A stretch of 64,000 bases of DNA from Fibrobacteria bacterium (GTDB taxonomy: Bacteria > Fibrobacterota > Fibrobacteria > UBA11236): assembly GCA_041746255.1 (NCBI GenBank), contig JBGTHM010000097.1, positions 1 to 64,000 of the forward strand. The letters are read 5' to 3'. The notes below the pieces were generated by a model that saw only the letters and a program-made list of their open reading frames with translations, had not been told where the DNA came from and did not search any database. This document shows, piece by piece, positions 20,456 through 59,667 of the stretch. The translations under genes were made by a program, and so were the position numbers. Every line of letters begins with the position of its first letter. Position 1 is the first letter of the stretch.

Positions 20456-21070
20456 ATGTCCATCCATTCTATTTATCGCCTCCCCCTTTTTATCCTGGTC
20501 TCTATGGCTCTGACCTGGCCAAATGAGCTTCCTGTTGGCTTGCGCACAAACGGAGACCTCGACCACGAATTGATAAAACGCATGTATTACGAAGCGGAAT
20601 TCGCTTTGGTAAGTCAGGCTCTGGAAAATTTTTTAGCTAGCTCGAATAATCCTTCCCGTGAGGATCGGATTTTTGCCTACAAATATCTTTCGGTTATCAA
20701 CGCTTCCAGCGAGAATACCCGTCAACGCGCCGAAAGTTATATGTATCAGTTATTGCGCCTAAATCCGGAAATCGATCTCATCGACCTGTACATTTCCGAG
20801 CATATCGAATCGATTTTCAACAAAGTAAAAGACCGGTTTGTCCGCATGGAACAATTGAATCCCGGCCAAGCCACTCCCCAGGAAGATACCCTGGCCATAA
20901 CTAGCCCCGCCGAACCAGTCCAAAAAGTAGCCGGCAACAACGCCCCAGGCCGCTGGGTCTGGTACGCCGCAGGTGGAGCCGGCTTGGTGGCGGCAATAAC
21001 CCTATACGCGTTTTCCCTCGATGAGCCCGATAATACCCCCACCCAGCAAATCCTAATACCCTTGGAATGA
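20456..21070 (+). CDS. Hypothetical helical (TPR-like) secreted protein with C-terminal hydrophobic segment
   Basis: Signal peptide, helical core, WVWYAAGGAGLVAAITLYAF; paralog of 59050..59667. Confidence 0.75.
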   Translation: MSIHSIYRLPLFILVSMALTWPNELPVGLRTNGDLDHELIKRMYYEAEFALVSQALENFLASSNNPSREDRIFAYKYLSVINASSENTRQRAESYMYQLLRLNPEIDLIDLYISEHIESIFNKVKDRFVRMEQLNPGQATPQEDTLAITSPAEPVQKVAGNNAPGRWVWYAAGGAGLVAAITLYAFSLDEPDNTPTQQILIPLE

Positions 21071-21074
21071 GAAA

Positions 21075-23534
21075 GTGAATAGGCTTCCCCCATTTTCCCT
21101 TCGGCTGGTATATTCCCTCTGCCTGACTCTGATTTTCTGGGCTTGCAATGCAACCGACCCCGATCCCCGCCGCGTTCTCCAATTCGAACTTAAAAACATG
21201 GACGATCAAAAGGCTGACAGCTTCAACGTGGCCATCTATTCCTTACCACGCGAAAGCGCGCCTTTGCATATTTACACCAAGGTTATTCGCATCGATTCAG
21301 CGGTGTTCACCTTGGCCATCGATTCCCATTTACCTGCACGCTTCGAAGCCGACGTACGGGGATTCTTCCAAGGGAAACCGATTTTTTTCAAACGCGTGCA
21401 AGTCGAAGGCAATACCTTTTCCTCCTCCATCAACCTTCCCGTCGACACGGAACCGATTGATCCCTTCAACTCCGTACCCTTGGCCTTTCCCGATACGCTC
21501 CATGCTCAAGAGGATGCCATGCTCGTCTTTCCCGCATCCGACCTGGTTAAAAATGATTTGGACGGCGATAGCGACCCATTACGGGTAGACAGTGTTTTCA
21601 CTCCCCTCCATGGCGCCGTTTCACTTTCGGGGGGCAACATCACTTTCATTCCGGAACCGGATTTTTTCGGAGAGGCTGGTTTTACATATCGGGTAAATGA
21701 CAATCGGGGCGGCAAGGCTATTGCCCAGGTATACATCCTATTGGCTCCGGTGGACGACCCACCGAAATTCACCTCCTTGGATCCGCAGAGCGTAGAGGAA
21801 GGACAAGAGCTGACTTTTACCGTTAGTGCCGAAGATCCCGACGGAGACTTGCTGGTTTACCATTTGGTGCAACCTCCACCCGGAGCCAGTTTCGACACCT
21901 TGTCAGGACTCTTTTCCTGGACCCCGGACTTCGACCAGGACGGCGAATACATTTTAACCTTTGCAGTTCGCGACACTTCAAATCCGCCACTTACCGATAG
22001 CATGGAAGTCGAAATCGAAGTAATCGATTACCCCTTGACCGAAATAAATTTTGCCACCGCTTCCGGTTCCGGCCAGGAAGGAGTGGCTGCACTCGTCACT
22101 GTGGCCCTGCAATCCGCCTCCTTGCGCGAAGTTACCATTCGTTTAGTGACTGAAGATGTCACGGCGCAAGGCGGCAAAGATTATACGCCGCTGGATACAG
22201 TGCTTAAATTCACTCCCGGCCAGTTCTCCAAAGCCTTGTCCGTACAGGTAAACGATGATGCCCTTAACGAGGAAAATGAAACCTTTCGACTGGTCTTGAA
22301 AGAACCCGGAAATGTAAGGGTAGGCCTAATCGGAACCTTGGAATACACTATTGTGGATAACGACCCCATTCCATCCGGGGTGATTTGCGTGGATTCTGCC
22401 GCCGCCCCGGGAGGGGACGGTAAAGGCTGGGGCAGGGCCTTACGCACCCTGCAGGAAGCGCTTACGCTTGCCGTTTCGGGTCAGGAAATTTGGTTGGCTA
22501 AAGGTACGTATATACCGGGTGAGTCCCGTGCCTCCACCTTTACCTTGAAATCGGGAGTCGACCTCTACGGGGGCTTCGCCGGAGGTGAAACCCAACGCGA
22601 CCTACGTGATCCGGCGCGGAATTTATCGGTGCTCAGCGGTGAGATAGGCGCACCTGGTCCGGATGACAATATCCACCACGTTGTGGTAGCTTGGCAGGCA
22701 ACCGATGTGGAAGTGGATGGTCTGGTGATCACCGCAGGTAATGCCGTGGGGTCACCCCCGGTGGCCGGCGTATCGGGTTTTACCGCCACTTCGGGAGGAG
22801 GTGTCTATGCGGCGGGTAGCGGAGTGACGATTCGAAATACGGTCTTCACCGATAACCGGGGAGTTATGGGCGGCGCTCTCTCTACGGACGGAAGTCTGGT
22901 TGTGGGTTGCGTTTTCGCTGGAAACGCCGCGACCCGGAATGGAGGTGGCATTTCGGGTTCACGCTTTAAGATTTACAATTCCGTTTTTCACAAAAACAGT
23001 GCTGAAAGAGGTGGGGCGGTGCAACTACAGCGTTACATGAATACTTGGAACTCCGCTTTTATCGCCTTTTCCACCTTCACGGAAAATGTGGCATCCTATT
23101 TTGGAGGCGCGCTTTATGCCAACCAGAACGCTCCCCTGGAAATACGCGCCAGCATTCTATGGGCCAACATAGCCCAAGATGGAAGCCAGATTTATTTCGA
23201 CGGGAACCACTCCCACATCCAAGCATGGGAATCCACGGTGCAGGACCGATATGCTGATGGTTCGGCGAACAGCGAAGGGTCCGCGAATGTTATTTGGAGT
23301 TCGGGAATTGTGGATATCAATCCGGGCGGTAACCCCGGCTTCTCCGCGCCTGGAAATCCCCTCGGACCCGATGGACTTTGGCGAACGGCGGACGACGGCC
23401 TGCGACTCGGATCCGAAAGCCCCTTACGGGATAAGGTCACCCAAGCCGCGCCGCCGGAATTATCAGGACGCGACATTCTCGGAGAAGGGCGTGTCCAAGG
23501 AGACAAGGCGGACATGGGAGCCTACGAGCAATAA
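21075..23534 (+). CDS. Large surface lipoprotein: cadherin/Ig-like repeats, Calx-beta and Pmp-like beta-helix
   Basis: Lipobox FWAC; NDLDGDSD...FTYRVND; DPDGD...FSWTP; TAQGGKDY...DDALNEENETF; GGA(L/V)/FxxN repeats; DMGAYE end. Confidence 0.82.
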   Translation: MNRLPPFSLRLVYSLCLTLIFWACNATDPDPRRVLQFELKNMDDQKADSFNVAIYSLPRESAPLHIYTKVIRIDSAVFTLAIDSHLPARFEADVRGFFQGKPIFFKRVQVEGNTFSSSINLPVDTEPIDPFNSVPLAFPDTLHAQEDAMLVFPASDLVKNDLDGDSDPLRVDSVFTPLHGAVSLSGGNITFIPEPDFFGEAGFTYRVNDNRGGKAIAQVYILLAPVDDPPKFTSLDPQSVEEGQELTFTVSAEDPDGDLLVYHLVQPPPGASFDTLSGLFSWTPDFDQDGEYILTFAVRDTSNPPLTDSMEVEIEVIDYPLTEINFATASGSGQEGVAALVTVALQSASLREVTIRLVTEDVTAQGGKDYTPLDTVLKFTPGQFSKALSVQVNDDALNEENETFRLVLKEPGNVRVGLIGTLEYTIVDNDPIPSGVICVDSAAAPGGDGKGWGRALRTLQEALTLAVSGQEIWLAKGTYIPGESRASTFTLKSGVDLYGGFAGGETQRDLRDPARNLSVLSGEIGAPGPDDNIHHVVVAWQATDVEVDGLVITAGNAVGSPPVAGVSGFTATSGGGVYAAGSGVTIRNTVFTDNRGVMGGALSTDGSLVVGCVFAGNAATRNGGGISGSRFKIYNSVFHKNSAERGGAVQLQRYMNTWNSAFIAFSTFTENVASYFGGALYANQNAPLEIRASILWANIAQDGSQIYFDGNHSHIQAWESTVQDRYADGSANSEGSANVIWSSGIVDINPGGNPGFSAPGNPLGPDGLWRTADDGLRLGSESPLRDKVTQAAPPELSGRDILGEGRVQGDKADMGAYEQ

Positions 23535-29148: not shown

Positions 29149-30360
29149 TTAGGGAACCCGTTTTATCAAATCGCCGTAATGGATCCCGGTTAAGTGCAGA
29201 TCATCTACCCATAATTCGGCTTCTTGACTCGTAATCAAAGAGATGCGCCCTACACCCTTATTGACAGCCGACCACTCAAGACCGCTTTGGGAAGCCCCGG
29301 ATACCGGAAGTATATCTCCGGGGTGGATATCGATCCGGCTCCATTGCCGCCCCACGGTTACCGTCGCTCCGAAAGTTCCCTCTCCGGTTGCCACCGCTTC
29401 GGTTGCGAATAATACCCGCACAGCAAGGGAATCAACCGTTGCCCGGGCATAAAATGAAATCGTTCTGACCTTGGAAAAATCATACGCTTCCGGACCCAAA
29501 TTCACCCGGTAATGGGTATTCGGGCGGATATTTATCCGTAAACTCTTTCCACGATAGGCGCCTATGGAACTCAAGGAAAGCTCCGCCGAAGCATTCTCCA
29601 CGGGCAGCACGGATTGGGGAGTACTATTGATGAAAACCCGTCCTGCAGTGAGGATTTCGGCCGGATAGAGTATTCCACGTAAGGCGCTGCGCGTCTGTGT
29701 CGACTCGAAATCGAAAAGCACCACCGAGTCGGGGGGAACATGCACGCTATCCAATTCCAGTAACTCGCCAGGTACCAACCTGAAACTCTCCTGAAACCAG
29801 AAAACCGGCATACCGTCCATTTCTGCGTGACCAATCAAAGAGTAATTGCCCGGCAATACGGGAGGAAATTGGAAAACACCCTCTTCGCCGACTATGGCCC
29901 GGTAATGGGTGCCCGAAAGTCCCAATGAATAGACTTTTTCAAAATCGCCGTGCATTCGGCCTGCAATTCGGGCAGCTTCCACCAAATCGATTTTTCCGGG
30001 TCGAAACCCGCCATCCACCTCCGGGACCACCGGGAGAATGGACTGCCGCATGGAATCAGCTGATTGAAGACTTAAAAAGGATTCTCCCGCAGGCACATCG
30101 CTGATTAGGAACCGCCCTTTGGAATCGCTCAGGGCTTCCGCAATTACCGGCGCGGTCGATTGAACTAGAGCCGTACTCGTATCAGGCACGAATCGGCCTT
30201 TCCGAAGGGAGACGCGAGCTCCGACCAACGGCTCTCCGGAGCCATCGTAAACATGGGCGACGATTTCATTGGGTTGATCGGTACCCCCGCCGGCAACGCG
30301 CTCGCACCCGGCTATTAGCAAAGTCAGTAGCAAGAAACCCAGTAGGGAAAACCGAATCAT
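29149..30360 (-). CDS. Lipoprotein with carboxypeptidase-regulatory-like domains and C-terminal CBM11/CIA30-like domain
   Basis: Lipobox IAGC then ERVAGGGT; SDSKGRF; LFDFE...YDFSKVRTISFYAR...LWVDDL; ATGA-coupled to the TIGR02147 gene. Confidence 0.7.
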   Translation of the reverse strand: MIRFSLLGFLLLTLLIAGCERVAGGGTDQPNEIVAHVYDGSGEPLVGARVSLRKGRFVPDTSTALVQSTAPVIAEALSDSKGRFLISDVPAGESFLSLQSADSMRQSILPVVPEVDGGFRPGKIDLVEAARIAGRMHGDFEKVYSLGLSGTHYRAIVGEEGVFQFPPVLPGNYSLIGHAEMDGMPVFWFQESFRLVPGELLELDSVHVPPDSVVLFDFESTQTRSALRGILYPAEILTAGRVFINSTPQSVLPVENASAELSLSSIGAYRGKSLRINIRPNTHYRVNLGPEAYDFSKVRTISFYARATVDSLAVRVLFATEAVATGEGTFGATVTVGRQWSRIDIHPGDILPVSGASQSGLEWSAVNKGVGRISLITSQEAELWVDDLHLTGIHYGDLIKRVP

Positions 30361-31229
30361 TTTCCCGGCTCTCCCTTTTCATCGCTGTCCCTTAGGTTCT
30401 GGGTCAAGGGATATAATTGGAGATTCAGTGAAAATATTCCACTGACATCGGACTCCTCCATCGCACGGCTTAAAATCTTTCTCCGGACTTCATCCAATAA
30501 CACCGAAATCTCCTCGAAATATTTTTGCCCGATAGCTAAGGTCGCATAGCTCAAATGCCTTTGCGATTTAGGCATCATCTCACCCGCTTGAATGGCCTTG
30601 AACAAAAATTGCGACCTCACGTTTTTGATGATATGGGGTGGACAACCTTCTCCGCTCACTACCGGGTCGGCCTGGGTAAACCGATTTCCGGAGATTTTCT
30701 TCAAAAATCCGGTCTCGACCAATAAAGCGACTGCCTCCTTGGCTTCCTTCTCCGTAATCGGGGGAATCAACATCTGGCCTAGTTTCCGATAATTGCCTTT
30801 CCAATCGCCGTATACGGCCGCTTCCCGGATAACCTGATAGATCCAACTGGAAAAATAGGAGAATTGTTCCTCCTGAACCCGATAGAACGCCAGTTTTCGA
30901 CGAAGCCGATTCATTTCCGTCAAAAACTCCTGTTTCTCCAAATACACTTCTGCCTGATTATAGAGGACCAGATACTGGAAATATTCGATTTCCAGTTTGG
31001 ATAGGCTCATGGCCTTCCCGATTTTCAAAACCGATTCCAGGGTCAGGTTCCTTTCCCCACGGATGACTTTATCGCAGAAACTATGAGACTTAAAACCAGC
31101 TTTTTGGGCGAAAAAACGGTAAGAGAAGCTTTTTTTCTCCCGCTTTTGCCCTTGAAAATACTCGCTGAGAAAACTCCGGTAATTATCGAAAGTGAAAATT
31201 GACCCCATTTTCGGATTTTCGGCGCTCAT
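30357..31229 (-). CDS. TIGR02147/DUF4423-family protein (N-terminal HTH-like)
   Basis: YRSFL...FSYRFFAQKAGFKS...GERNL...YFQYLVLYNQA...W...IRE...LNLQLYPL pattern. Confidence 0.88.
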   Translation of the reverse strand: MSAENPKMGSIFTFDNYRSFLSEYFQGQKREKKSFSYRFFAQKAGFKSHSFCDKVIRGERNLTLESVLKIGKAMSLSKLEIEYFQYLVLYNQAEVYLEKQEFLTEMNRLRRKLAFYRVQEEQFSYFSSWIYQVIREAAVYGDWKGNYRKLGQMLIPPITEKEAKEAVALLVETGFLKKISGNRFTQADPVVSGEGCPPHIIKNVRSQFLFKAIQAGEMMPKSQRHLSYATLAIGQKYFEEISVLLDEVRRKILSRAMEESDVSGIFSLNLQLYPLTQNLRDSDEKGEPGK

Positions 31230-31436: not shown

Positions 31437-32513
31437 ATGCTTAAGCCTATTTTCTTGTTCCTAATAAGTATTGCATGCATCACCCAAGCCATAGCCCAGG
31501 TTCCCATGGGGAGAATGGCCTATATCGCCGACGGCAATTACCGCGATTCGGATGATATCGCCGCTACCCCGGTGGGCCTGGCTATTCTCCGAGCCATGGG
31601 GCTGGAAAAGAAATTGGTCCATTATTCCCATTCCTGCGACCTCAAACCGGGTTCAGGTGATCCCGGCGGCCCTTTTCGTGAAAAGGAAATGCAGATTAGC
31701 AGCGACGGTACCGCAGAACGCTGGGGCGGTTTCGAACATATCACTTTCTTCAATGCCCTCCGGGCCACGGACGCCACGGTCAATGATCTTGTCAAGCACA
31801 TCAACAACTCGACCGAAGCGGATCCACTCTGGATTATCGAGGCAGGCGAACCGGACATCATGGTTATGGCCCTGAAAAAAAGCGACCGCGCCAAGGCGAA
31901 ATTCGTGCACATCATCACCCACCATCCCGCGAACGACAAGGGCGATACCTATAACCTTGAGGATGTTTTTAAGGAAGGTGTCCCTACGGCGAATATCCAT
32001 CGCATACCCGATCAAAACACATTGCTCAGAAAAAAGCTGTCCGAATTCCACTGGGCTAGGGACCATAAGGACTCGCGAATCAAATGGCTTTGGGATAGGG
32101 TGAACCTGGCTCAATCTACCGAAATGAAATACCCGCAAATAGTAGGCTGGGCTGACATTTCCGACGCGGGAATGGTATGGTGGTGGGCCACCCTCGATAA
32201 GGGCGGCGATGAAAAATGCGACTTTCCCAAAATCAGAAAATTACTCGAAGACTATGTTGCCAAACCTGTTATGTCGATATCGTTTTCCGGAAACCCGCGC
32301 GGCTTGGAAGTCCATTCCGGAAAGGGTGGTTTCACCATAGTTGCAAGCTCGGAACCTATTCAATTGGAAGTGGTCAATCTACAGGGGAAAGTCATTCATC
32401 ATGAATCCGGTCGCCTGAAAAGCACATTCATTCCCGTTACGGAAAAGGGCATGCACTTTATCCGGCTTTCACAAGGTAATTTCCGCATAAATACGAAATA
32501 TGTTTCCCGGTAA
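31437..32513 (+). CDS. Secreted nucleoside-hydrolase-like-fold protein of unknown function with T9SS-like tail
   Basis: Start moved to ATG 31437; ADGNYRDSDD; PLWIIEAG; SDAGM; tail VVNLQGK...KGMHFIRL; paralog of 12207..13313. Confidence 0.6.
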   Translation: MLKPIFLFLISIACITQAIAQVPMGRMAYIADGNYRDSDDIAATPVGLAILRAMGLEKKLVHYSHSCDLKPGSGDPGGPFREKEMQISSDGTAERWGGFEHITFFNALRATDATVNDLVKHINNSTEADPLWIIEAGEPDIMVMALKKSDRAKAKFVHIITHHPANDKGDTYNLEDVFKEGVPTANIHRIPDQNTLLRKKLSEFHWARDHKDSRIKWLWDRVNLAQSTEMKYPQIVGWADISDAGMVWWWATLDKGGDEKCDFPKIRKLLEDYVAKPVMSISFSGNPRGLEVHSGKGGFTIVASSEPIQLEVVNLQGKVIHHESGRLKSTFIPVTEKGMHFIRLSQGNFRINTKYVSR

Positions 32514-32544
32514 CAAACTATGGAAATCATCGAGTGATAAGTGG

Positions 32545-34773: not shown

Positions 34774-34803
34774 GGTCTGGAAACCGCTTGGGTAATCCTC
34801 GGG

Positions 34804-45457: not shown

Positions 45458-45463
45458 ACCCAA

Positions 45464-48015: not shown

Positions 48016-49649
48016 TGGGCCTGTTTTTACCCTTGTTGCTGGCTGCCGGAACGGCCTGGAGTTGGAATTCCCAACTGCTGTTACCCGATGGCGGCGGATT
48101 CACCCGAGCAGTGGTTGAACGGGACAGCCTGGATTTCCGTCTGGCGGATTTCTCCTTTGCCGGATACCGGGCGGGAGAAGATTCCCTTCCCAACCGGAAA
48201 CCGGATATCACCTTGTCCCCGGAGACTGGGGATAATGTCAAACGCATCAACGATGCGATACGCAAGTTAGCCAAGCTTCCGACCGATTCGCGTGGGATAA
48301 GAGGCAAACTCCTTCTCAAAGCGGGTACCTGGGAAATCGGGGATGAAATCCGCATCTTCCATTCCGGCATCATACTGGCCGGTGAAGGCGCGGATAAAAC
48401 CTTCCTCTATGTGAATTCCCGGAAATTCGCCCGCAAGGCGGCCATCAGTGTTTCCGGACCCTCCTCAGAGGAATGGAAACGGATCCCGGCGGGAACCCAC
48501 CGCGCCAAAATGTTGGAGGATCCGCCCGATCAGGCCACCTTCGTGCGGGTAGAAACCGCCGACACTTTTAAACCCGGACAAATGGTGATTGTTCGACAAT
48601 GGCCGTCACGGGAATTCTCGCGCGCGCATGGCGCGGACGGCATCAAATTCTGGCCAGCGAGCCTGGATAATACCGCCATTAAATTTGCCCGGATGATTCG
48701 CGATGTACGCGGAGATACGCTTTTATTTACCGAACCCCTGCGCTATCCCCTCCATGTCCGTTATGGAGCCCATGTCTTTCCCGCGGCCTTCCTTCAGGAA
48801 GTGGGAATCGAGAATTTTTCCATCGGCTTCGCGAAAGGAGATGGCGTGGGAGGAATGGCAAGCACGAACCGCGCGGCGGCGATTTATATGAACGACGTGA
48901 TGAACGGGTGGGTTCGGGGGGTGAAATCTTACCAGCGCGACGAAAACAGCGCTCATTTGCAAAGCTATGGTATCACCTTGCGCGCATGCAAATGGATTAC
49001 CGTCCAGGATTGCTCCATGCAAGACCCTCAGAACAAAGGCGTGGGCGGCAACGGATATCTCTATAACCCCGTGACCAGCGACGCAATTCTGTTTCGGCGC
49101 TGCCGAGCTTCTGGAGGAAGGCATAATTTCGCCCTGCACTACAGTTCCAGCGGATGTGTTATCACCGACAGTTATTCCGCCTATTCGCGTTCCGATTTTC
49201 ATCAATTCCTTTCCACCGAAAATCTTTTCGATAACTTCACCCTGGAAGGGGATTCGCTTACTGCCGGTAACCGCGGCGATAAAAGCCAGGGTGCATGGTG
49301 GACCACCGCCAAGGCGACCCTGTGGAATCTCAAAGGCTCCGGAGCGGTGTACCTGAATTCATGGCATCGAGGCTATTTGATCGGCGTCGCTCCCGGCATT
49401 CGTGTGGGTACCGGTACCCAAAATATTTTGCAGGATTATGGAGATACCTATTTGCCGGAGCTCCAATGGGTCGAACCCGGCCCAGAGGGTGAAGCATTGG
49501 ATCCTCCTTCACTTTACGAATTCCAGCTTAAGGAACGCTTAAGTTCCGGAACCAGGGTTTTCCAAACCGACGCTTTGGTTGAGAGGGAAAATGCAACGCG
49601 AAACCTGGAGCCTCAGGATAGATTGAATATGGAGGATCATTCGCAATGA
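48015..49649 (+). CDS. Secreted/periplasmic beta-helix (pectate-lyase-3-like) glycan-active protein
   Basis: Signal peptide; DFSFAGY; ILAGEG; EVGIEN; GGNGYLY; GRHNF; ENLFDN; PPSLYEFQL. Confidence 0.72.
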   Translation: MGLFLPLLLAAGTAWSWNSQLLLPDGGGFTRAVVERDSLDFRLADFSFAGYRAGEDSLPNRKPDITLSPETGDNVKRINDAIRKLAKLPTDSRGIRGKLLLKAGTWEIGDEIRIFHSGIILAGEGADKTFLYVNSRKFARKAAISVSGPSSEEWKRIPAGTHRAKMLEDPPDQATFVRVETADTFKPGQMVIVRQWPSREFSRAHGADGIKFWPASLDNTAIKFARMIRDVRGDTLLFTEPLRYPLHVRYGAHVFPAAFLQEVGIENFSIGFAKGDGVGGMASTNRAAAIYMNDVMNGWVRGVKSYQRDENSAHLQSYGITLRACKWITVQDCSMQDPQNKGVGGNGYLYNPVTSDAILFRRCRASGGRHNFALHYSSSGCVITDSYSAYSRSDFHQFLSTENLFDNFTLEGDSLTAGNRGDKSQGAWWTTAKATLWNLKGSGAVYLNSWHRGYLIGVAPGIRVGTGTQNILQDYGDTYLPELQWVEPGPEGEALDPPSLYEFQLKERLSSGTRVFQTDALVERENATRNLEPQDRLNMEDHSQ

Positions 49650-50686
49650 TATCCAAATATTTTTTGTTCGGAATCCTCCTGATGGGAATCGTCTCAGCCG
49701 CCGAAAAGCTGGACGTATCCTTCGACAACCAGAATTTAGGAACTTATACGCGCTCGAAAATGCGCGTTGAATGGGCCGGTGAAAACTGGGACAACGGCCT
49801 GGGGGAAGGGCGCGGCCGCATCGTAGATGGCGCAAACGCCTATGCCGGCAAAGCGCTGGAAGTCCGCTACCTGGGTGGAAAATTCGGACCCGAAGCGGGT
49901 GTGCAATTCCAGGGGAATTTCACGGCAACAGACGCCGCCACCCTGGAATACCGCGTCAAATTTCCGGCGGGTTTCAAATGGACCAAAGGCGGAAAACTTC
50001 CCGGTTTATGCGGTGGGACTTGCAGCACGGGAGACGAGAATCCAACCGGGGCCAACGGCTGGAGCGCGCGTTATATGTGGAGAGAGAACGGGCAGGCTAT
50101 CCTTTATCTTTATCACATGAATTGGACCAACCACGGAGACCAACTCGATCTGAAGCTTTCCGGCGCGAATGTGCGATTCGAGACCGGCCGCTGGCATCAT
50201 CTCAAGCAATCCATTAAAATGAACACCCCGGACAAAAGAGACGGCCAAATCATTGTCTGGCTGGATGGTAAAGAGGTGTTACGCACAGCTTTCGTGAAGT
50301 TTCGCTCCGTCCCAACCTTGAAAATCAACAAGGTCTACTTTTCCACCTTCTTCGGAGGCAGCGATAACTCCTGGTCTCCTTCATCGGAACAAATCGCTTA
50401 TTTCGACGACTTTCATATCTATCCCGACAAGCCTTCCAGTGGCCTGGCATTCCAAGCCACCCAAAACGGATTGATCCGCTCCGCAACTCCCGGATGGACC
50501 CGCCTGACCGCCCCATCCCCAGTCGGCACCTGGATTCTTTCGGACTCCCGAGGAAAAACTTTTGGGCGGTACGATGGAGAAGTGCTTTCCCAAGGGAAAT
50601 GGATCTCCATGACTCCGGGAAACTATTATTGGCTATGGCATGAAAACAACGCGACGAATCCTGTCAGGACGGTCCCCCACCGTTAA
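49646..50686 (+). CDS. Secreted PL14-like polysaccharide (alginate/glucuronan-type) lyase
   Basis: YRVKF..GF.WTKGGKLPGL.GG, GWSARYMWR, FSTFFGG, YFDDF. Confidence 0.88.
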   Translation: MISKYFLFGILLMGIVSAAEKLDVSFDNQNLGTYTRSKMRVEWAGENWDNGLGEGRGRIVDGANAYAGKALEVRYLGGKFGPEAGVQFQGNFTATDAATLEYRVKFPAGFKWTKGGKLPGLCGGTCSTGDENPTGANGWSARYMWRENGQAILYLYHMNWTNHGDQLDLKLSGANVRFETGRWHHLKQSIKMNTPDKRDGQIIVWLDGKEVLRTAFVKFRSVPTLKINKVYFSTFFGGSDNSWSPSSEQIAYFDDFHIYPDKPSSGLAFQATQNGLIRSATPGWTRLTAPSPVGTWILSDSRGKTFGRYDGEVLSQGKWISMTPGNYYWLWHENNATNPVRTVPHR

Positions 50687-50717
50687 AGCCGATTCCCCAA
50701 CTCGGGAAGGAGAACTC

Positions 50718-52412
50718 GTGATCCGGCCCACCCAAGCTGAAAAAATCGCACAAGTGCTCGAACGGAGAATCCAGGACGATTCCAGTCCCGTTCTGCCGCC
50801 CATGCGAACTTTAGCCCAAGAATACCGGGTTTCCTTGAATACCGTTCACAAAGCCGTTGCCCGTCTGAAAAGCCTGGGAATGGTGGAGGTCTACCAGGGC
50901 GGGAAAATCCGGATTCAGGGTCGACATAGCAGCGCCGAATTAGAGTGGCGTCCCAAACCCACTTCTCGCGAATTCATCTATCAATTCGTTCGTGATCGGA
51001 TTTGCAGTGGAGTCTATCCCATCGGCAAACCTCTGCCCAAGGTGGCTTATCTGGCTTCCAGTCAAAATCTTTCGCACCATGCCGTTACGGCTTCTTATCG
51101 TCGTCTGGAAACCGAAAATCTGGCGCGTAAAGAAGGCCGGCTCTGGATGGCCGGTCCGCGACCGCCCAAAGTGGAAGCGGAATTTCTGAGGCAACCCGTA
51201 ATTGTGCTGCTACAATCCCATGAGGATTTTTGGATTCACACGGCTCAGCGCCCGTTTTTCGAATCCTTCTGCCGCAGTTTTCAGGCCGAAATGGAAGCCG
51301 CCGGCGTGCAATTGATGCCCGCATTGTTTTCCGAACGCGGAGAAGCGGGAGGAGGCCTTCCGGCAGGACAGATTGCCGTATTCACTTTGATTCGCTCCTT
51401 GGGGACACGCTATCGGGGCGCTTTGATTCTCAATGCCGCCAAAGAGGTGAGGGACTTGGAAAAGTGGGTACAAGGGCTCTCCCGGTTCAATCGACCGGTA
51501 ATCTGGTTCGACCGCCTTAAAGAAAACCCCAAATTCCGTACCCGCTCCAGCCAATTTACCCGCTGCCATAGCGCCGAGGATCGCGCCGTGGATCAGGTGG
51601 TCACCTTCCTTACCGGCCTGGGGCACCGCCACATGGCGTATGCCGCATTGAGTCGGGAAAAATGGGCCGCTTATCGCGGAGACCTTATCCGGCAGGTTTT
51701 GCGGGAGAGGGTTCCCGGCGGTGAATTGCACCTGGCGGAAAAAGATTCCCGAATTTTTCTGGAAGGGCCGATGCCGCAAAGAATGGCCGCCTTGAAGGCC
51801 GTATCGGAATCGGAAACCGTTCCGGCCGCGGTCCGGAAAGCCATTCGTTTGCTGGCCAAGCTCAAAGATGAGAACGGTGAAAAACTGCCGTGGAAAATCC
51901 GTACGGCCTACAGCGAAGACCCTTGGCAAGGGGTGGCGGCGTTACTGGAAGAAATTGAAGCCGACCCCCATCGCGTACCCCCCCTGCTGGAACTGTTTCC
52001 TTCTTACCGCAACCTGCCCTGGCTGGTGATGCTCTATCCCTTGCTGAGATCCATTTTGGAAAACCCCCTTATTACAGCCATAATCGCACCCAATGACTTT
52101 CTCGGCCATAAACTCAACTACTGCTTAAAAGCCATGGGTATCGCGGTACCCCAGAAAATCTCCCTGATTTCCTTCGACAATCAATGGTTCCTGCAAAGCC
52201 TGCCGGTGACCACGGTGGATTTCGGCTATTCCTATCTCGGGTTCGCGGCTTTCCACCAAATCGCCCAGGATATCGACTTGAAAGTGATTGACGGCAATAT
52301 TCCGGCCCAACCCCGGATCATGCACCGGGGATCGGTGGCGGCACCCTCCAAGTTTTACCCGGATCCGGTTGAAATATCAGCCTCCCGGAGAGAGTCCAAA
52401 CAAAGGAGATGA
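50718..52412 (+). CDS. Transcriptional regulator with two tandem GntR wHTH domains and a LacI-type sugar-binding domain
   Basis: LPPMRTLAQEYRVSLNTVHKA and LPKVAYLA...SHHAVTASY; LGHR; ND...G..VPQKISLISFDN; RBS GAAGGAG before GTG 50718. Confidence 0.85.
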   Translation: MIRPTQAEKIAQVLERRIQDDSSPVLPPMRTLAQEYRVSLNTVHKAVARLKSLGMVEVYQGGKIRIQGRHSSAELEWRPKPTSREFIYQFVRDRICSGVYPIGKPLPKVAYLASSQNLSHHAVTASYRRLETENLARKEGRLWMAGPRPPKVEAEFLRQPVIVLLQSHEDFWIHTAQRPFFESFCRSFQAEMEAAGVQLMPALFSERGEAGGGLPAGQIAVFTLIRSLGTRYRGALILNAAKEVRDLEKWVQGLSRFNRPVIWFDRLKENPKFRTRSSQFTRCHSAEDRAVDQVVTFLTGLGHRHMAYAALSREKWAAYRGDLIRQVLRERVPGGELHLAEKDSRIFLEGPMPQRMAALKAVSESETVPAAVRKAIRLLAKLKDENGEKLPWKIRTAYSEDPWQGVAALLEEIEADPHRVPPLLELFPSYRNLPWLVMLYPLLRSILENPLITAIIAPNDFLGHKLNYCLKAMGIAVPQKISLISFDNQWFLQSLPVTTVDFGYSYLGFAAFHQIAQDIDLKVIDGNIPAQPRIMHRGSVAAPSKFYPDPVEISASRRESKQRR

Positions 52413-52621
52413 CATCCCCTTGATATCCTTGCCCACCAGGCCTCAGTCCCGCAGCGAACTTCGCTGGTGTTGGGAATCCCACCTCCCTGGCGCGCCATTA
52501 TTCCGGGCGAAAATCCTCTTTAGAAATTACCCGTATTTGAGTCTATCGTTTAAGGAATTAATCGCTTGCACGCAAAAACCGGCAACTGAATAGTATGCAT
52601 CCGTATAGTTTAACTTTTAGC

Positions 52622-53518
52622 ATGGATACCCAGAAATCAGCTGGCCCGGAGGGTGAACCTCCCGGGTCGGATTCCCCCAAACTTTCCCTGTTCGGCTATA
52701 CCGATTTCCGCGCTTTCCTGAAAGAGTGGTATCGGTTACGCAAAGAAAAAGATCCGAAATTTTCTTATCGTAAACTGGCCGGGCTGGTGGGATTCAAGTC
52801 AGCCGGACATTTCAGTCTCATCCTTGGCGGCAAAGCCAATCTATCCCTGAGACTGCTGGATCGGTTTGTACGCATTCTGGAAATGAACCAAAAGGAAACC
52901 GACTATTTCCAGGCTTTGGTTCTGTATAATCAAGCCAAGGGATTCGACGAAAAAAAACGCCAATTCGAGCGAATGCGTTCCTTTCAGGAGTTCCGGCTAC
53001 AGGTTATCGAACCGGCTCAATACGAATTTTTCGCGAAGTGGCATCATTCCGCCGTGAGGGAGGCTCTGGCTATCATCCCATTCCGGGACGATTATGCTGC
53101 GCTCGCGCGGATGATTGAGCCCTCCATCACACCCGAAGAGGCGAGCAAATCCGTAGCGTTGCTTTGCCGTTTGGGGATGGTGGTACGCAATGCGCAAGGC
53201 GTGCACCGGAGGGTGGAGCCGCTGCTCTCCTCGGGGCCAGATGCGCCTGCGGTAACCGTCAATGAATTCCTCGACCAATCCCTGGAATTGGCCCGTAACG
53301 CTCTGGCCAGAATGTCCCGGGAAGAACGCATGTTATCCGCTACCACTTTATCGATTTCTTCACAAACCTTCGGGATTATCCGCGAGGAAATCCGGACGCT
53401 TCGGAAACGCATTCTGAATCTGGCGAAAAAGGACGAAAGTCCTGATCGGGTCTACCAGATACAGCTTCATGCTTTTCCGCTTTCACAGCGTTTCGTGCCG
53501 AAAGGAAAAAACTTATGA
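52622..53518 (+). CDS. TIGR02147/DUF4423-family protein
   Basis: YTDFRAFL...FSYR.LA..VGFKS...G..NLS...YFQALVLYNQA...W.H..VRE...FPLS; the start may instead be 52595. Confidence 0.88.
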   Translation: MDTQKSAGPEGEPPGSDSPKLSLFGYTDFRAFLKEWYRLRKEKDPKFSYRKLAGLVGFKSAGHFSLILGGKANLSLRLLDRFVRILEMNQKETDYFQALVLYNQAKGFDEKKRQFERMRSFQEFRLQVIEPAQYEFFAKWHHSAVREALAIIPFRDDYAALARMIEPSITPEEASKSVALLCRLGMVVRNAQGVHRRVEPLLSSGPDAPAVTVNEFLDQSLELARNALARMSREERMLSATTLSISSQTFGIIREEIRTLRKRILNLAKKDESPDRVYQIQLHAFPLSQRFVPKGKNL

Positions 53519-54816
53519 GCATATGGATGAAATTTCTGACGGCGATTTTTTCCACCGGGTTTTTCTTCGCCGGTTGTCAACCGGAGCGGCTTGCCGGAGG
53601 CGGAGGCAGTGAAGTCGAAGGCATTACAGTGGAAGGAGTCGCGTATTATCCTACGGGTATGCCCGCAAGCTCGGCTCGGGTCCGCATCCGACCTTGGGAT
53701 TACCTACCCTTGGATTCGGATACGACCCTAGGAGCGGGCGAATGGCGCTTTGACCTGGCAACCGACTCATCGGGACGTTTCCGTGCGGATGGTTTAGTAC
53801 CCGGCGAATACCTTCTGGAAGTAGACGATGGTTTGGACTGGGGGATGGTCGGCAACATCCGGGACGAAGACCTCGATGGTGTGGTTCGCATTTCCGCCGA
53901 AATGAAACCCCATGGATCGGTTTACGGAAGGGTGACCGATTCTACAGGTGATGGAATCGCCGGCGCCTGGGTAGCCGTCTATGGCCTGGAGCGGGCTACC
54001 GAAACCGATGGGAACGGGTTTTATCAACTGCAATCCCTACCCGCCGGCAATCTGAACCTGCGCGCGATTGCAGCTGAAGCGGGGCTGGCTTCCCGCGAAA
54101 AATCCGGCGTAAAGGTCGAGCCGGAGAAAGCGACCCAAACCAATTTCGTCGTGGAGCGTAGTCTGACCAACGGTTTGATCGGGCATTGGACATTCGACGG
54201 AGGCGATGGTCCGCTGGCAGCGGAAGCCCATGGAAGCACTGCACGCGTGGATTTGAAAAGGTCCAATTGGGGGCCGGGGGTGATGGGCGCAGCGCTTGAC
54301 CTGACCGGGCAATCCACGGTGTATGTCCCCGAATCCAAATCGGCGATGTTCGCAATCGACAAAGACTCCGATTTTTCCGTATCCCTCTGGTTCCGCACCA
54401 GCGGGGACTCCGGGGCAGCGAAGCGAACCGTATTGATAGACTCCCGATCCCAACGCTGCCCATCAGGCTATGGGTTACGCTTGTTGGCTAACGGGACGGT
54501 GGAATTCGTGGTACGGGGACTGGACCAAGCAAAAATATGGAAGTTGCGCAGTCCCGAAGGGCTGACCGACGGAAGTTGGCATCATGTGACGGGAATGAAA
54601 GTAGCCGATTCCCTGAAATTATGGGTGGATGGAATTCCGGTCGCCACGGGACCCGGTTCCACCGGAAAGCTGGCGACGGGGAATCGCTTGCATTTTGGCA
54701 ACCAGGAGGGTCTCACCGAATTTTTCATGGGTTCCCTGGACGAAATTAGAATCTACAACCGGGCATTAACCAAAAGGGAAATAATGGAATTGGCGGTGCT
54801 ACCCAAAAGCAAATAA
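53515..54816 (+). CDS. Lipoprotein with carboxypeptidase-regulatory-like domains and C-terminal LamG domain
   Basis: Lipobox FAGC then ERLAGGGGSE; TDSSGRF; GLIGHWTFD...WHHV...GSLDEIRIYNRAL; ATGA-coupled to the TIGR02147 gene. Confidence 0.82.
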   Translation: MSIWMKFLTAIFSTGFFFAGCQPERLAGGGGSEVEGITVEGVAYYPTGMPASSARVRIRPWDYLPLDSDTTLGAGEWRFDLATDSSGRFRADGLVPGEYLLEVDDGLDWGMVGNIRDEDLDGVVRISAEMKPHGSVYGRVTDSTGDGIAGAWVAVYGLERATETDGNGFYQLQSLPAGNLNLRAIAAEAGLASREKSGVKVEPEKATQTNFVVERSLTNGLIGHWTFDGGDGPLAAEAHGSTARVDLKRSNWGPGVMGAALDLTGQSTVYVPESKSAMFAIDKDSDFSVSLWFRTSGDSGAAKRTVLIDSRSQRCPSGYGLRLLANGTVEFVVRGLDQAKIWKLRSPEGLTDGSWHHVTGMKVADSLKLWVDGIPVATGPGSTGKLATGNRLHFGNQEGLTEFFMGSLDEIRIYNRALTKREIMELAVLPKSK

Positions 54817-56376: not shown

Positions 56377-56814
56377 ATGTCTTTCTTAACCTCGAATTCC
56401 GTTAAATACGTGGGTGCGATTTTGGCCATGGTCTGGGCGGTGATCTACCTGGCCAATAGGAACGGCTCCGATCAATTTGAGCCCGGCCCGGAAATCCATG
56501 ACCAGGGCCACATTACGCGGATTTATGGTTTTGAGCCCAGCACAAAAAAAAGAGTCAACCTGCTTTCCACCGGCCTGCATACTCTTAGAATCCGCTCTAT
56601 CGAATCAAGAGGAGGCATCGCTTACGAGATCGCTGCGAAAAATTATCCGGAAACCCTGGTTTATAAAGTCGACTCGTCAACCGCCCCTGCCTTAGCAGTA
56701 GGTGATAAGGTCGACTTGGTGCATATGGATATCCCGATGGGTTACCGGGAGCGGGAAGTCATGGTATTGTACATCCAAAAACAGGAGGCGGCCCCGGAAG
56801 ACCCAGGGCCCTAG
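56377..56814 (+). CDS. Hypothetical protein with N-terminal membrane anchor
   Basis: 145-aa ORF filling the gap between genes; one hydrophobic helix. Confidence 0.6.
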   Translation: MSFLTSNSVKYVGAILAMVWAVIYLANRNGSDQFEPGPEIHDQGHITRIYGFEPSTKKRVNLLSTGLHTLRIRSIESRGGIAYEIAAKNYPETLVYKVDSSTAPALAVGDKVDLVHMDIPMGYREREVMVLYIQKQEAAPEDPGP

Positions 56815-59069
56815 GGGCTTAAGACGGGTTGGAGGGGAGTGGTCTCGATTTTGGGATTGATGGGTATAAAGATAATGGGTTTAGTCGTGTCGTAAATTTC
56901 TTTAACGGCGGTCGCATTCAAAGTGCGATTATAGAAGCGAACTTCGTCAATCGCACCCTTCCAATAGGATCCTCCTAAAAACCCGAGGGTAATATTGGAA
57001 AGATCGCCCGTCAGCGTACCGGTATGGGGCGTACTAGACTGAAGAACACCATTCAAATAAGCGCGAATGGTAATTCCATCATACGTACCGGCAAAGTGAA
57101 CCCAACTTGTAGTGGATACAGCCGCTTTGGCGCTATTGGTGGTCGGTACGCTTATCGCCATTCCCACCGAAGCACCATCCATGAAGATGCCGATGCCGGG
57201 CGTCCGGATGAAGTATCTGAGGCCGGTGGGACTTTCAGGCAACTTGACCCAAAGCGACACCGTGAGATTTTTTCCGGTGGGAAAAGCCGCTTTGCCCAGT
57301 GTGCGGGCGGAATCGTTGATGCCATCGAAATTGAGCGCCCTGGAGGCGGTGCCCCACCTGTCCGCCACGAAAGTCGCTCCGCTTATCGTCAAATGATTGG
57401 CGTTGATACCGGCGTCCAGGCCATTGCCATCGAATTTATACCAGGAAACGGGACCGAGTATGACGGCAACTGAGGCAAGTCCAGTAGCGGACCAGTTACC
57501 CACCGAATCTCTCTCCTGCACATAGAGTGTGTGCACGCTGTCGGGAAGGTCTTTGGTCGGGGAAAATTCCTTCGCAGTCGTTTCCGTGGCGCCGGTCACG
57601 AGTACCGAATCGTTGAGTTTGTACCGGAAGGTACCGTTTCCGCCACCCCCCGAAGTCCAGGACCATATCGGCCGGGCGATGTTGGTAACGGAGGGGGCCG
57701 TAACCACCGGTTTCGAAGGAGGAATATCGTCGATGCGCGTCAGGTTAAGGGTATAAGTTCGCTTTGCCGTGCCATTTGCGGCGGTTAATTCGATTTCGAT
57801 CTTATTCAAACCCATTTGCAAATCAATCGGAGCAGAGGATTCGCCCGGGGAGACGACCGCGCCTTTAACGGTTATGGTGGCGGAGGAATCTCGTGGAGAT
57901 ACGGAGATCACGATACGGTTTTTAAGCGACTTCTCCATTGTGCCTGGATTAACAAAAACCGTCGCTTCGGTGATAGTCTCTCCCACCTCCACTTGGTAGG
58001 ACAAAGAATCAGGGTGAAAAGCCGGGGTAGTGGTCTCAGACAATTCCAGCGTATCCAAGGCGGCGTCGTCAGAAAGGCGTAATACGTTTATATCATAATT
58101 CCGGATTTGTCCATTTTCAGCTTTTACTTCAACCTTGATGGGAACCTGGCTTTGGCCCGCAGGTAGCGCAACGATATGGGAGGCGCCCGACTCCACGATG
58201 ATACCGTTAATCTTTAATTCGGCACTGGATTCAGCGACATCGGCGGATACGCCAATTTGACTTTCCGTCAAGGGAAGGATAACCGAATACTTCAGCGTAT
58301 CGGGGGAGAACGCCGGTTCCAAAACACCCGAGGATACCTGCAGTCCCACCAAAGCATTGTTCTGGGCAGCATCAAGCCGCACCACTCCCACCTCATACGT
58401 CGAGGATGCCATTTTCTCGGCGGCTACTTCGATGAGCAATACCGTAACTCCCAGGGTCAAGGGCATGGGGTCGCTGTCTTTGTCCGAAGCCAATTCCTTC
58501 CCGTTCAATTTAAGAGTTCTACCGGCGTTGGCTTTCGCTTTTACCGTAGTCGTGCCCGCACCGATGGAAGCTTTACAGGCATAAGACTTGATTGCCGGAT
58601 TGAATGCCGGCACCAGATCGCAGGCGGAAATCGACAGAGCAGAAAGGGCCGCAATCTCGGTTTGAGTGGTGTCACCCGGAACCGGAGCGTCCGGATCCTT
58701 GACCAACACCACGGTGTCGTTTTTACCCGATTTGCCGTCGTAGACTCTGTCTTCGATTTTAACCGCTTCGCCGTTTTTGAATCCTGTAATGACTACGTGG
58801 ATTTTACCGCCATCGTATTCTTGGGCGGGAAGTTTCTTTAGATCGTCAACCGATTCGACCGGCCCATGAAAGAGAGTCTTGATTAGCTTTCCGTCGCCAT
58901 CTCTCAACTCCACCCGAAGACTGTCATATTCCAGCCAGGACTCATCAATCCGGACTTCCATAAACGTATCACCCTCGTCGGCGACCCGGCAGGAGGAGAT
59001 AAAGGCGACCATCGCAAAGGCCAGGCATATAAGCAGCAGAATCGGATGTTTAATCGATGGGAACGACAT
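56811..59069 (-). CDS. Large surface lipoprotein: cadherin-like beta-sandwich repeats, Ig-like and LamG domains
   Basis: Lipobox ISSC; three PAFxP...Y repeats; SWYKFDG...WVHFAGTYDG...IDEVRFYNR. Confidence 0.85.
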   Translation of the reverse strand: MSFPSIKHPILLLICLAFAMVAFISSCRVADEGDTFMEVRIDESWLEYDSLRVELRDGDGKLIKTLFHGPVESVDDLKKLPAQEYDGGKIHVVITGFKNGEAVKIEDRVYDGKSGKNDTVVLVKDPDAPVPGDTTQTEIAALSALSISACDLVPAFNPAIKSYACKASIGAGTTTVKAKANAGRTLKLNGKELASDKDSDPMPLTLGVTVLLIEVAAEKMASSTYEVGVVRLDAAQNNALVGLQVSSGVLEPAFSPDTLKYSVILPLTESQIGVSADVAESSAELKINGIIVESGASHIVALPAGQSQVPIKVEVKAENGQIRNYDINVLRLSDDAALDTLELSETTTPAFHPDSLSYQVEVGETITEATVFVNPGTMEKSLKNRIVISVSPRDSSATITVKGAVVSPGESSAPIDLQMGLNKIEIELTAANGTAKRTYTLNLTRIDDIPPSKPVVTAPSVTNIARPIWSWTSGGGGNGTFRYKLNDSVLVTGATETTAKEFSPTKDLPDSVHTLYVQERDSVGNWSATGLASVAVILGPVSWYKFDGNGLDAGINANHLTISGATFVADRWGTASRALNFDGINDSARTLGKAAFPTGKNLTVSLWVKLPESPTGLRYFIRTPGIGIFMDGASVGMAISVPTTNSAKAAVSTTSWVHFAGTYDGITIRAYLNGVLQSSTPHTGTLTGDLSNITLGFLGGSYWKGAIDEVRFYNRTLNATAVKEIYDTTKPIIFIPINPKIETTPLQPVLSP

Positions 59070-59667
59070 GGATTTTGTCCTCCGGTTCCGGTTCGGTGGA
59101 AAGCAAATAGGCGGTGACTCCGGCGGTTACCAAGGCGGCGCTGCCGGCGATCCAATAATATTTGGCGTTGGAGTTTTTTTCGCTGGTGCCGGGGGTATTA
59201 TCGATGGAGCCGGATGGTTTTTCCGAAGCAGCTTGGGTAGTGGAAACGGGCTTGGGTTCAGGTGCTCCTGAGATTTCGTCGTCCGCAGCCTGGCGAAGCG
59301 AGAACTCCTTGCGAACTCGATCGAATATCCGGTAGATTTCGTCGCTGACATACATATCCACCAATTCGGCCGAAGGCATCATCCGCAAAAGGTCGTGCAT
59401 ATACTTTTGACCCAATTCCCGTGTGGCCGGATTGGCGGTGTAGACTACCGAAAGGTGTTTCGCGATAACGATGCTGTCCTGCCGCGAATAACTCGAGTTT
59501 GCTTTCTGGAAATCCTGGATAATCCGAATGACTTCCTCGAAATTTCCTTCATTATATTGCAATCGCAGTTTTTCATGAGGGAGTGCGCCGGAAACCGGTG
59601 ATTGGCATAGAACCGGCGAAAAAAATCCCAGCAGCACCAACATGGTCAATGCAGAAAATCGAACCAT
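59050..59667 (-). CDS. Hypothetical helical (TPR-like) secreted protein with C-terminal hydrophobic segment
   Basis: Signal peptide; YYWIAGSAALVTAGVTAYLL; paralog of 20456..21070. Confidence 0.75.
   Translation of the reverse strand: MVRFSALTMLVLLGFFSPVLCQSPVSGALPHEKLRLQYNEGNFEEVIRIIQDFQKANSSYSRQDSIVIAKHLSVVYTANPATRELGQKYMHDLLRMMPSAELVDMYVSDEIYRIFDRVRKEFSLRQAADDEISGAPEPKPVSTTQAASEKPSGSIDNTPGTSEKNSNAKYYWIAGSAALVTAGVTAYLLSTEPEPEDKIHVVPID

Follow-up and report, generated by a model that had tools for sequence, protein, structure and literature searches.

The stretch of DNA analysed here, called the window below, comprises 64,000 nucleotides of a Fibrobacteria bacterium (assembly GCA_041746255.1, 4.59 Mb in 130 contigs; contig JBGTHM010000097.1, denoted C97), and it bears two copies of a two-gene module in which a gene for a small helical protein, hereafter the partner, is directly followed on the same strand by a gene for a large adhesin-like lipoprotein. 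Our results revealed that this cassette is real, conserved and lineage-specific, that it is formed by two undescribed protein families, and that it is multiplied within each genome. The features of the two modules, A and B, are as follows.

20456..21070, plus strand: partner A, 204 aa, an open reading frame (ORF) with predicted signal peptide, helical domain, linker, membrane helix and acidic tail
20558..20851, plus strand: helical domain of partner A, residues 35-132, predicted to be like the tetratricopeptide repeat (TPR) from its alignment with the modelled domain of partner B
20957..21013, plus strand: predicted Gly/Ala-rich hydrophobic helix of partner A, residues 168-186, read from the sequence
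21014-21067, plus strand: acidic tail of partner A, read from the sequence
21075..23534, plus strand: lipoprotein A, 819 aa, an ORF with GTG start and Pfam and NCBIfam matches
21144-21146, plus strand: predicted lipobox Cys of lipoprotein A, read from the sequence
21144..21446, plus strand: lipobox Cys and probable, divergent N-terminal domain (N-domain) of lipoprotein A, from profile-profile links and weak direct matches
59050..59667, minus strand: partner B, 205 aa, an ORF (AlphaFold2 model m1a6fcf4a6469)
59290..59583, minus strand: helical, TPR-like domain of partner B, residues 29-126, as modelled by AlphaFold2
59101..59157, minus strand: predicted Gly/Ala-rich hydrophobic helix of partner B, residues 171-189, read from the sequence
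59053-59100, minus strand: tail of partner B, read from the sequence
56811..59069, minus strand: lipoprotein B, 752 aa, an ORF with Pfam matches
58989-58991, minus strand: predicted lipobox Cys of lipoprotein B, read from the sequence
58698..58991, minus strand: lipobox Cys and N-domain of lipoprotein B, a predicted Ig/FN3-like 7-strand sandwich (AlphaFold2 model mc5b9e7026ac4)

All four ORFs lie exactly where, and on the strands on which, the preliminary description of this DNA had placed them. The junctions are tight: the GTG start of lipoprotein A lies 4 nt past the stop of partner A, and the start of lipoprotein B overlaps the end of partner B by 20 nt; promoter and terminator scans of both modules gave no excess over shuffles. 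For 56700-59800 no RNA run is listed; the one run listed is of DNA and may be the source of the sequence. The two partners of about 205 aa had been taken for relatives from a common motif string, and this holds well, for the string is present and the proteins are homologous with 29% identity over 172 residues (E 9e-26); moreover, partner A matches a profile of the helical domain at E 1.5e-35. The passengers had been described as different (Ig, Calx-beta and Pmp versus cadherin and LamG), as the domain scan of both lipoproteins confirms: Pfam and NCBIfam detect Big_9/Cadherin_5, He_PIG, Calx-beta, a beta-helix with a Chlam_PMP repeat and a choice-of-anchor Q end in lipoprotein A, and Pfam detects three Cadherin-like domains and Laminin_G_3 in lipoprotein B.

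The modules are not confined to the window. A search of the own genome with partner B finds 7 partner paralogs, and 6 of the 7 are directly followed by a same-strand gene for a 752-1085-aa protein whose signal peptide ends in Cys, with junctions that range from a 32-nt overlap to a 59-nt gap. Two profiles were used for scanning the 36,866 six-frame segments of the genome, namely A5 for the partner helical domain and A3 for the lipoprotein N-domain; A5 matches exactly 7 own ORFs and A3 exactly 6, all of them members of modules or a barrel-fused paralog. The latter, a 364-aa protein at L012:762-1856 on own contig C80, consists of the helical domain and then a predicted outer-membrane beta-barrel, and scores 28.4 bits on PF13505 (OMP_b-brl), the gathering threshold being 28.7; seven barrel-type orthologs match the same model over the same region at 18.5-25 bits. 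All 8 of the barrel-type paralogs examined end in GFHF, GFHY or GYHY, and the type, with a barrel of about 170 residues, is kept across genera (relatives L065-L071). No lipoprotein gene lies downstream of the own C80 copy, and none of the 6 barrel-type loci with at least 966 nt of downstream sequence has an N-domain match there. Since the helical domain is N-terminal to an outer-membrane barrel in the fused paralog, we place this domain in the periplasm.

As to the partner itself, neither copy in the window falls in any Pfam or NCBIfam family. A word-indexed search of 5.8 billion proteins returned 32 partner relatives, none with a Pfam domain; they bear the name 'hypothetical protein' at most, and the six NCBI-derived clusters that were looked up are nameless. 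By an exhaustive profile search of 1.84 billion cluster representatives, 511 matches were obtained at E<=1e-3 (414 at E<=1e-10), the best 150 of the 511 being 121-415 aa long with the domain close to the N-terminus. The AlphaFold2 model of partner B, made from a 30-sequence alignment, has helices at residues 31-39, 43-56, 62-78, 80-96 and 109-133 with a predicted local distance difference test (pLDDT) of 87-98 over the block, then a disordered linker at 134-169 and a further helix at 170-190, so that a five-helix, TPR-like domain is confidently modelled. The nearest folds are TPR/solenoid proteins, with scores within reach of unrelated helical repeats: in Foldseek the best E is 0.2, with BamD, PilF and other periplasmic TPR proteins at E 0.2-0.5, and in the VIA fold search the best Z is 8.6 among ties, with BamD chains at Z 6.5-7.8. 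No Pfam TPR model matches the partners at E<=0.1, and a search of PDB sequence profiles gave no TPR match to the partner below E 0.2 and nothing for either the partner or the N-domain below E 0.1; TPR clusters at 0.88 in the ESM Atlas serve only as a lead.

The remaining elements of the partner are predicted from sequence patterns. Most members of the family have a signal peptide with an Ala-X-Ala-type end, the Trp before the hydrophobic helix is nearly invariant, and the tail follows the consensus ..D.P....YV.P. Under a strict test for the C-terminal hydrophobic helix, 50 of 76 unique partners pass, the other 26 being barrel fusions, truncated copies, long-linker forms or near misses. Among these 50 partners the linker, rich in Ala, Ser, Pro, Lys and Thr, has 15-77 residues (median 44) and the tail 12-24, while a net positive charge is seen for the 12 residues preceding the helix in 41, and the tail has a net negative charge in 30 and a positive one in 10. 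Such an arrangement of charges, present in the window at 20957-21067 and 59053-59157, is not what one would expect of a protein that has a signal peptide and is anchored in the inner membrane by its C-terminus. No C-terminal sorting-domain model of NCBIfam (PEP-CTERM, GlyGly-CTERM and the like) matches either window partner at E<=0.05, and the tail is acidic, unlike the basic cluster of sorting signals.

The lipoproteins begin with a hydrophobic segment followed by Cys in all 6 own copies (...FWAC, ...ISSC and others), which constitutes a predicted lipobox; the form ...FWAC is common among the relatives, and three own copies have an atypical residue (N, Q or F) ahead of the Cys. A short acidic tether leads from the Cys to the first strand of the N-domain, the window copies reading C-N-A-T-D-P-D and C-R-V-A-D-E-G-D. 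The number of Asp and Glu at positions +5 to +10 after the Cys averages 1.95 for 58 N-domain lipoproteins versus 1.14 for 311 other lipoprotein-like ORFs, which were selected by a crude pattern. Beyond the N-domain, 39 relatives' lipoproteins carry only PKD, Big_2, Cadherin-like, LamG, InlB-B-repeat, CARDB and similar modules, in architectures that vary between subfamilies; Pfam finds no enzyme domain among these 39, and no match whose best-scoring stretch lies inside the first ~115 residues. A partnered lipoprotein of the own genome (L011:1135-4056, contig C1, 973 aa) has a C-terminal Cytochrome_CBB3 domain at residues 912-971 (E 5.1e-7), after Big_2.

The preliminary description had also claimed that the two lipoproteins of the window share their N-domain. 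The 58698-58991 copy, modelled from a 52-sequence alignment, is predicted to be a seven-strand sandwich with pLDDT >90 over residues 10-90, and its fold neighbours are generic FN3/Ig-like domains (Foldseek best E 0.06; in VIA the best Z is 7.1, and 215 chains reach Z>=5); the C-terminal domains of the type IX secretion system (T9SS) that occur among the ties count for nothing here. For the partner and for the N-domain alike, there is no match in Pfam, in NCBIfam or among solved structures. BLASTP finds no similarity between lipoprotein A and lipoprotein B, and the two N-domains of the window are 11% identical in the family alignment. A profile of 30 foreign N-domains finds lipoprotein B (E 5.4e-33) and the copy on contig C125 (E 7.6e-4) in the own genome and nothing else; iterated searches pull in C125, C102, C89, lipoprotein A and C1 successively, and no other own-genome ORF. 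The iterated profile had crept into the signal peptide, and therefore the test was redone on mature sequences only. With leave-one-out profiles five left-out paralogs each come back as the sole extra match (B 3.7e-29, C125 4.1e-5, C89 0.0022, C102 0.017 and C1 0.066), and HMMER does not recover lipoprotein A with a profile from which the 21144-21446 copy and its ortholog were left out.

For lipoprotein A the links come from profile-profile comparison. The A-type N-domain is connected with an intermediate subgroup of relatives (E 1.4e-5, 80%, 100 columns), and this subgroup with the B-type (E 6.8e-11, 97%); compared directly, A-type and B-type are not significant. Against the rest of the family the A N-domain gives E 0.0015 (17%, 98 columns), and the alignment is in register with the DS..V and GF..G motifs. 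A direct search of 39 genomes of the order with the 21141-21485 N-domain gives a strong match only for the same-genus ortholog (58% identity), together with three weak ones at E 1e-3 to 3e-3 in two other genomes; the one of these three that was checked (G262:C398) is just downstream of a partner gene. Judged by these comparisons, the N-domain family is real; five of the own copies are solid members of it, and the sixth, lipoprotein A, probably belongs to it as well, by its profile links and its context. The shared domain is the weakest part of the first description: the profile-profile links and the intermediate subgroup speak for it, and neither pairwise BLASTP nor the HMMER leave-out search shows it. 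When the N-domain profile was run against longer proteins, 6 matches were obtained from a crowded candidate list, mostly in the own genome and a near relative.

Across the phylum the cassette shows a narrow distribution. Partner matches are present in 44 of the 296 genomes sampled, and the strong ones are confined to the order of the window, in which the three families have them in 23/31 (22/30 without the unpublished genome G254), 5/6 and 1/1 genomes, many genomes of the order having at least 10 scored copies. Weak matches only, at E 9e-9 to 9e-4, are seen in 14 other genomes; among these is the single genome, out of 151 in the largest family of the phylum in the sample, that has a match, a marginal one at E 4.3e-4. 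For examining the gene order, 47 foreign loci were chosen via the partner, one genome being scanned per species; 41 of them come from records titled Fibrobacteres, Fibrobacteria or Fibrobacterota, and 6 from records titled Verrucomicrobiales, Bifidobacteriales or 'uncultured bacterium'. They contain 60 partner matches, 6 of which lie within 700 nt of a contig end; for 45 of the 54 assessable partners an N-domain match follows at most 1 kb downstream on the same strand. By this co-occurrence test, which had been set beforehand, partner homologs are clearly enriched directly upstream of N-domain lipoproteins. Among the nine others, L041 has a frameshifted lipoprotein, three (L052, L023:657 and L043) have a lipoprotein-like ORF beyond the reach of the A3 profile, the first two of which are reached by the iterated profile and L043 is not, L025 has only 2 kb of sequence left, and four have something else or nothing downstream (L048 twice, L049 and L054). 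The lipoprotein gene at L041:4310-7875 is split into a lipobox piece (4310-4522) and a body (4495-7875) in different frames, the cause being a frameshift or else a fault of the assembly.

When the ORFs of the 47 loci are clustered all against all, two recurrent real families only emerge, the partner (59 members, 47 loci) and the lipoprotein (66 members, 37 loci); the clusters that rank next are, going by where their examples lie, frames that run antisense to the lipoprotein genes or overlap them. Some modules are arranged in tandem, as in partner, 444-aa lipoprotein, partner, 1166-aa lipoprotein. No partner-lipoprotein fusion was found among proteins of 427-2000 aa, a weak negative because the candidate list was crowded. 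As the 47 loci had been picked through the partner, five whole relatives were also searched with both profiles, and the counts for these are among the matches listed. They have at least 39 partner matches, of which 7 are in frames of at least 384 aa (the one checked, L069, is a barrel fusion) and 1 is partial; 22 of the 31 ordinary partners stand directly upstream of an N-domain match, and of the 40 N-domain matches listed 22 come directly after a partner and 2 second behind a partnered lipoprotein. The pairing is thus far beyond chance, and the linkage of partner and lipoprotein is very strong, not obligatory. Furthermore, the pairwise identities of partner and N-domain over 39 modules are correlated with r 0.87, a value reached in 0 of 2000 permutations. 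Since these identities correlate while the passengers differ, the conserved unit is 'partner plus N-domain'. The first proposal is partly supported, by the enrichment, the co-divergence and the differing passengers; its core, a partner that recognises the N-domain so as to export, anchor or assemble the lipoprotein, is putative, and the partner is not obligatory in cis.

What such a unit may do can be considered from the predicted layout of its products. The product of gene 1 would be exported by Sec, its five-helix TPR-like domain lying in the periplasm and a disordered Ala/Ser/Pro/Lys-rich linker of 15-77 residues tying this domain to the Gly/Ala-rich membrane helix with its short conserved tail. 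Gene 2, translationally close-coupled, would give a large adhesin-like lipoprotein of Ig-like, PKD, cadherin-like and LamG modules, of which the first ~95 residues after the lipidated Cys would form the acidic tether and the family-specific Ig/FN3-like domain. The helical domain may then dock on the tether or the N-domain of the lipoprotein encoded alongside, and the partner would serve as a dedicated adaptor which either escorts this lipoprotein to its envelope site or holds its base there. Such a putative periplasmic adaptor, recognizing the membrane-proximal part of its neighbour, is the most economical reading because of the tight junctions and the conserved unit of partner plus N-domain, and we put it ahead of the others with a probability that comes near to an even chance without reaching it. 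The fold of the helical domain counts in its favour as well, because its weak neighbours are TPR proteins, a class of protein binders, and so do the periplasmic place of this domain given by the barrel-fused paralog and the acidic excess after the Cys of the lipoproteins.

Several points weigh against such an adaptor. If the lipoprotein is exposed on the surface, a periplasmic partner could touch its N-domain only in transit. The charges flanking the partner helix, basic before and acidic after, are inverted for an inner-membrane stop-transfer anchor, and hence the membrane of this helix, and with it the place where partner and lipoprotein might meet, is uncertain. The 21144-21446 N-domain is tied weakly to its family. 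In the five whole relatives 9 of the 31 ordinary partners have no detected N-domain downstream and 16 of the 40 N-domain matches are orphans, both among the matches listed; four of the orphans are close paralogs in G274, a genome in one contig, and lack a partner ORF upstream, and one partner of G274 stands alone, as do those at L079, L048, L049 and L054. The co-divergence, moreover, is no proof of co-evolution, because co-inherited neighbours give the same correlation. A complex prediction for N-domain residues 1-100 with partner residues 26-136, made with alignments, scored 0.00 and, being without controls, weighs neither way.

A bolder proposal would take the helical-domain family as the receptor part of a novel, substrate-dedicated surface route for giant lipoproteins in Fibrobacterota, for which the N-domain with its acidic tether would be a portable export or anchoring tag. 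The receptor would then exist in a single-helix form in the cassette partners and as an outer-membrane-barrel fusion in the stand-alone paralog, and would be a functional counterpart of the Slam system made from unrelated parts, the Gly/Ala helix perhaps sitting in the outer membrane. We consider this unlikely at present, at roughly one chance in several.

Of similar, low probability is the idea that the partner serves the envelope in general, as a scaffold or tether which makes no specific contact with the N-domain and is co-expressed because cells with very large surface lipoproteins need it, for example in organising complexes or in linking the membranes to the wall, as in the TPR/OmpA proposal for Fibrobacter succinogenes. 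The existence of orphan lipoproteins and stand-alone partners would suit such a role, and so would the solitary barrel-fused paralog with N-domain matches at 0/6 loci and the proposal in PMC6851124 that TPR proteins of the same phylum are organisers of OmpA-anchored surface complexes. A general scaffold, however, would hardly be expected in at least 6 diverged copies per genome, each beside its own lipoprotein and diverging in step with the N-domain of it, nor to leave one marginal match (E 4.3e-4) in 151 genomes of the largest sampled family of the phylum.

A role of the partner as regulator or sensor is improbable. It would then be a single-pass protein that monitors the lipoprotein with its periplasmic domain, and another factor would cleave or read its membrane helix or tail, thereby tuning expression or turnover. 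Gly/Ala-rich helices are favourable for intramembrane proteases, and the partner helix is such a one; its tail motif ..D.P....YV.P is conserved, and a rhomboid gene stands divergently beside partner B. However, the tail has just 12-24 residues and bears no output domain, no regulator gene recurs across the loci, and the rhomboid neighbour, the single one in this genome, is kept only in the closest relative. Equally improbable is the absence of any functional link, with the two-gene unit duplicated as a block and its adjacency being historical, for though block duplication is evident from the tandem arrays and the parallel divergence, the gene order and the close junctions are retained in different families of this taxonomic order, down to a partner identity of ~20-30%, while the flanking genes differ, which is hard to keep without selection.

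Besides the two modules, several other genes of the window deserve a mention. The rhomboid protease gene lies at 59814-60560(+), 146 nt from partner B (PF01694, E 3.6e-35); it was considered as a component of the module and rejected, since outside the window only the closest relative, L013, has it next to the partner gene. The rhomboid is probably a housekeeping one, for which the Gly/Ala helices of the partners would be plausible substrates. A 145-aa ORF at 56377-56814(+), with an N-terminal hydrophobic segment and no family match, converges on lipoprotein B with a 4-nt overlap of their ends, and a GH39/GH53-like protein (18649-20307) lies just upstream of partner A. Between the modules, at 32500-52412, are genes for polysaccharide degradation (a PL8 lyase, two PL14 lyases, GH3 and DUF2264), along with a sodium:solute symporter and a GntR/periplasmic-binding-type regulator, and a sulfatase is encoded at 13392-15401. 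A second repeated pair is also found, in which a gene for a DUF4423 protein overlaps by 4 nt the start of a gene for a CarboxypepD_reg protein in both copies: 30357-31229(-), 290 aa, with 29149-30360(-), 403 aa, and 52595-53518(+), 307 aa, with 53515-54816(+), 433 aa, the last having CarboxypepD_reg and Laminin_G_3. In Fibrobacter succinogenes, DUF4423/TIGR02147 proteins are paired with lipoprotein paralogs. At 4021-6108(+) a VgrG-like protein (Phage_GPD at E 4.6e-76, and Phage_base_V) hints at a neighbouring element of the type VI secretion or phage-tail kind, and at 6723-9295(-) the gene for an extracytoplasmic function (ECF)-type sigma factor (8729-9295) comes before one for a 669-aa protein in which PEGA and TPR_12 occur (6723-8732).

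The placement of lipoproteins on the surface of Gram-negative bacteria beyond Proteobacteria is only now being worked out, for example for Lpt/LptZ in Bacteroidota, and to our knowledge nothing is known of it in Fibrobacterota. If the adaptor reading is true, a small portable N-terminal domain together with a dedicated partner would provide a testable handle and possibly a tag for the display of large passengers. Should the partner prove to be a scaffold only, two new protein families are defined all the same, one of them a helical domain family of about 500 clusters at 50% identity and the other an N-domain that is the hallmark of the main adhesin-like surface proteins in an uncultured order.

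It remains to compare the cassette with known systems. It had been put forward as a system not described before, and this agrees with the lack of any family match and of any paper on it in the literature searched, the latter being weak evidence since a literature search easily misses proteins that lack a family name. With BamD and PilF the partner has in common a weak resemblance of the helical domain fold, though not sequence similarity, and BamD is itself a lipoprotein without a C-terminal helix. The T9SS of Flavobacteria has SprF/PorP adaptors beside SprB-like adhesins, which are outer-membrane beta-barrels serving a cargo with a C-terminal signal domain; it is similar in that each large adhesin gene has a small accessory gene of its own and such pairs are multiplied in the genome, whereas in our cassette the cargo is N-terminally lipidated and the accessory is helical.

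Bacteroidota and Fibrobacterota are related at the superphylum level, and we know of no rule of the type of the lipoprotein export signal (LES) for Fibrobacterota. In Bacteroidota the LES lies at +2 to +6 with C-X-K-(D/E)2 as the optimum, and has the forms K-(D/E)2 or Q-A-(D/E)2 at about +2 to +5 (Lauber et al. 2016, PMC5080379). The tethers here are like it in bearing acidic residues soon after the lipidated Cys of lipoproteins with surface-type domains; they are unlike it in that the acidic excess lies at +5 to +10. Moreover, the route of Bacteroidota does without a separate partner for each gene. LptZ of the Lpt/LptZ route in Bacteroidota, a 642-aa five-domain protein according to a 2026 preprint (PMC13692018), was considered as a relative of the partner and rejected on this architecture. 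Within the same phylum, secreted TPR proteins with OmpA-type anchors and fibro-slime proteins have been proposed to organise the surface proteins of strain S85 of Fibrobacter succinogenes (Raut et al. 2019, PMC6851124). This proposal comes from proteomics, with no defined cassette and no N-domain lipoproteins described there, and the partner family is essentially absent from the largest sampled family of the phylum, with a match in 1 of 151 genomes (E 4.3e-4).

The closest analogue is the surface lipoprotein assembly modulator (Slam) together with the TbpB-like lipoproteins. At its N-terminus Slam carries a TPR-type domain that lies in the periplasm and is attached to a membrane part; for 185 of 353 Slams the gene is beside that of a lipoprotein substrate, and the TbpB-like substrates have one small common beta domain beside variable parts (Hooda et al. 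2017, PMC5449769). A membrane-joined domain, here of a possibly TPR-like fold, the adjacency of its gene to that of the lipoprotein, and lipoproteins with a common small beta domain are likenesses to our cassette, and the barrel-fused paralog has the same layout of helical domain plus barrel. The membrane part is different, however, being a 14-strand DUF560 barrel in Slam (PMC5449769) and here a single helix, or a PF13505-type barrel of ~170 residues in the paralog; no DUF560 was found in Pfam scans at E<=0.05-0.1, which covered the 7 paralogs of this genome and 7 foreign ones of the barrel type, the only barrel match being PF13505. The common domain of the substrates is also different, a C-terminal 8-strand barrel in those of Slam as that paper presents them and an N-terminal, Ig-like domain here; no TbpB-like C-terminal barrel is present in the lipoproteins of the window, whose C-termini are the beta-helix/choice-of-anchor Q end or Laminin_G_3. 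Considering further that Slam belongs to Proteobacteria and the cassette to Fibrobacterota, the cassette is not a member of the Slam family, to which it is analogous in layout.

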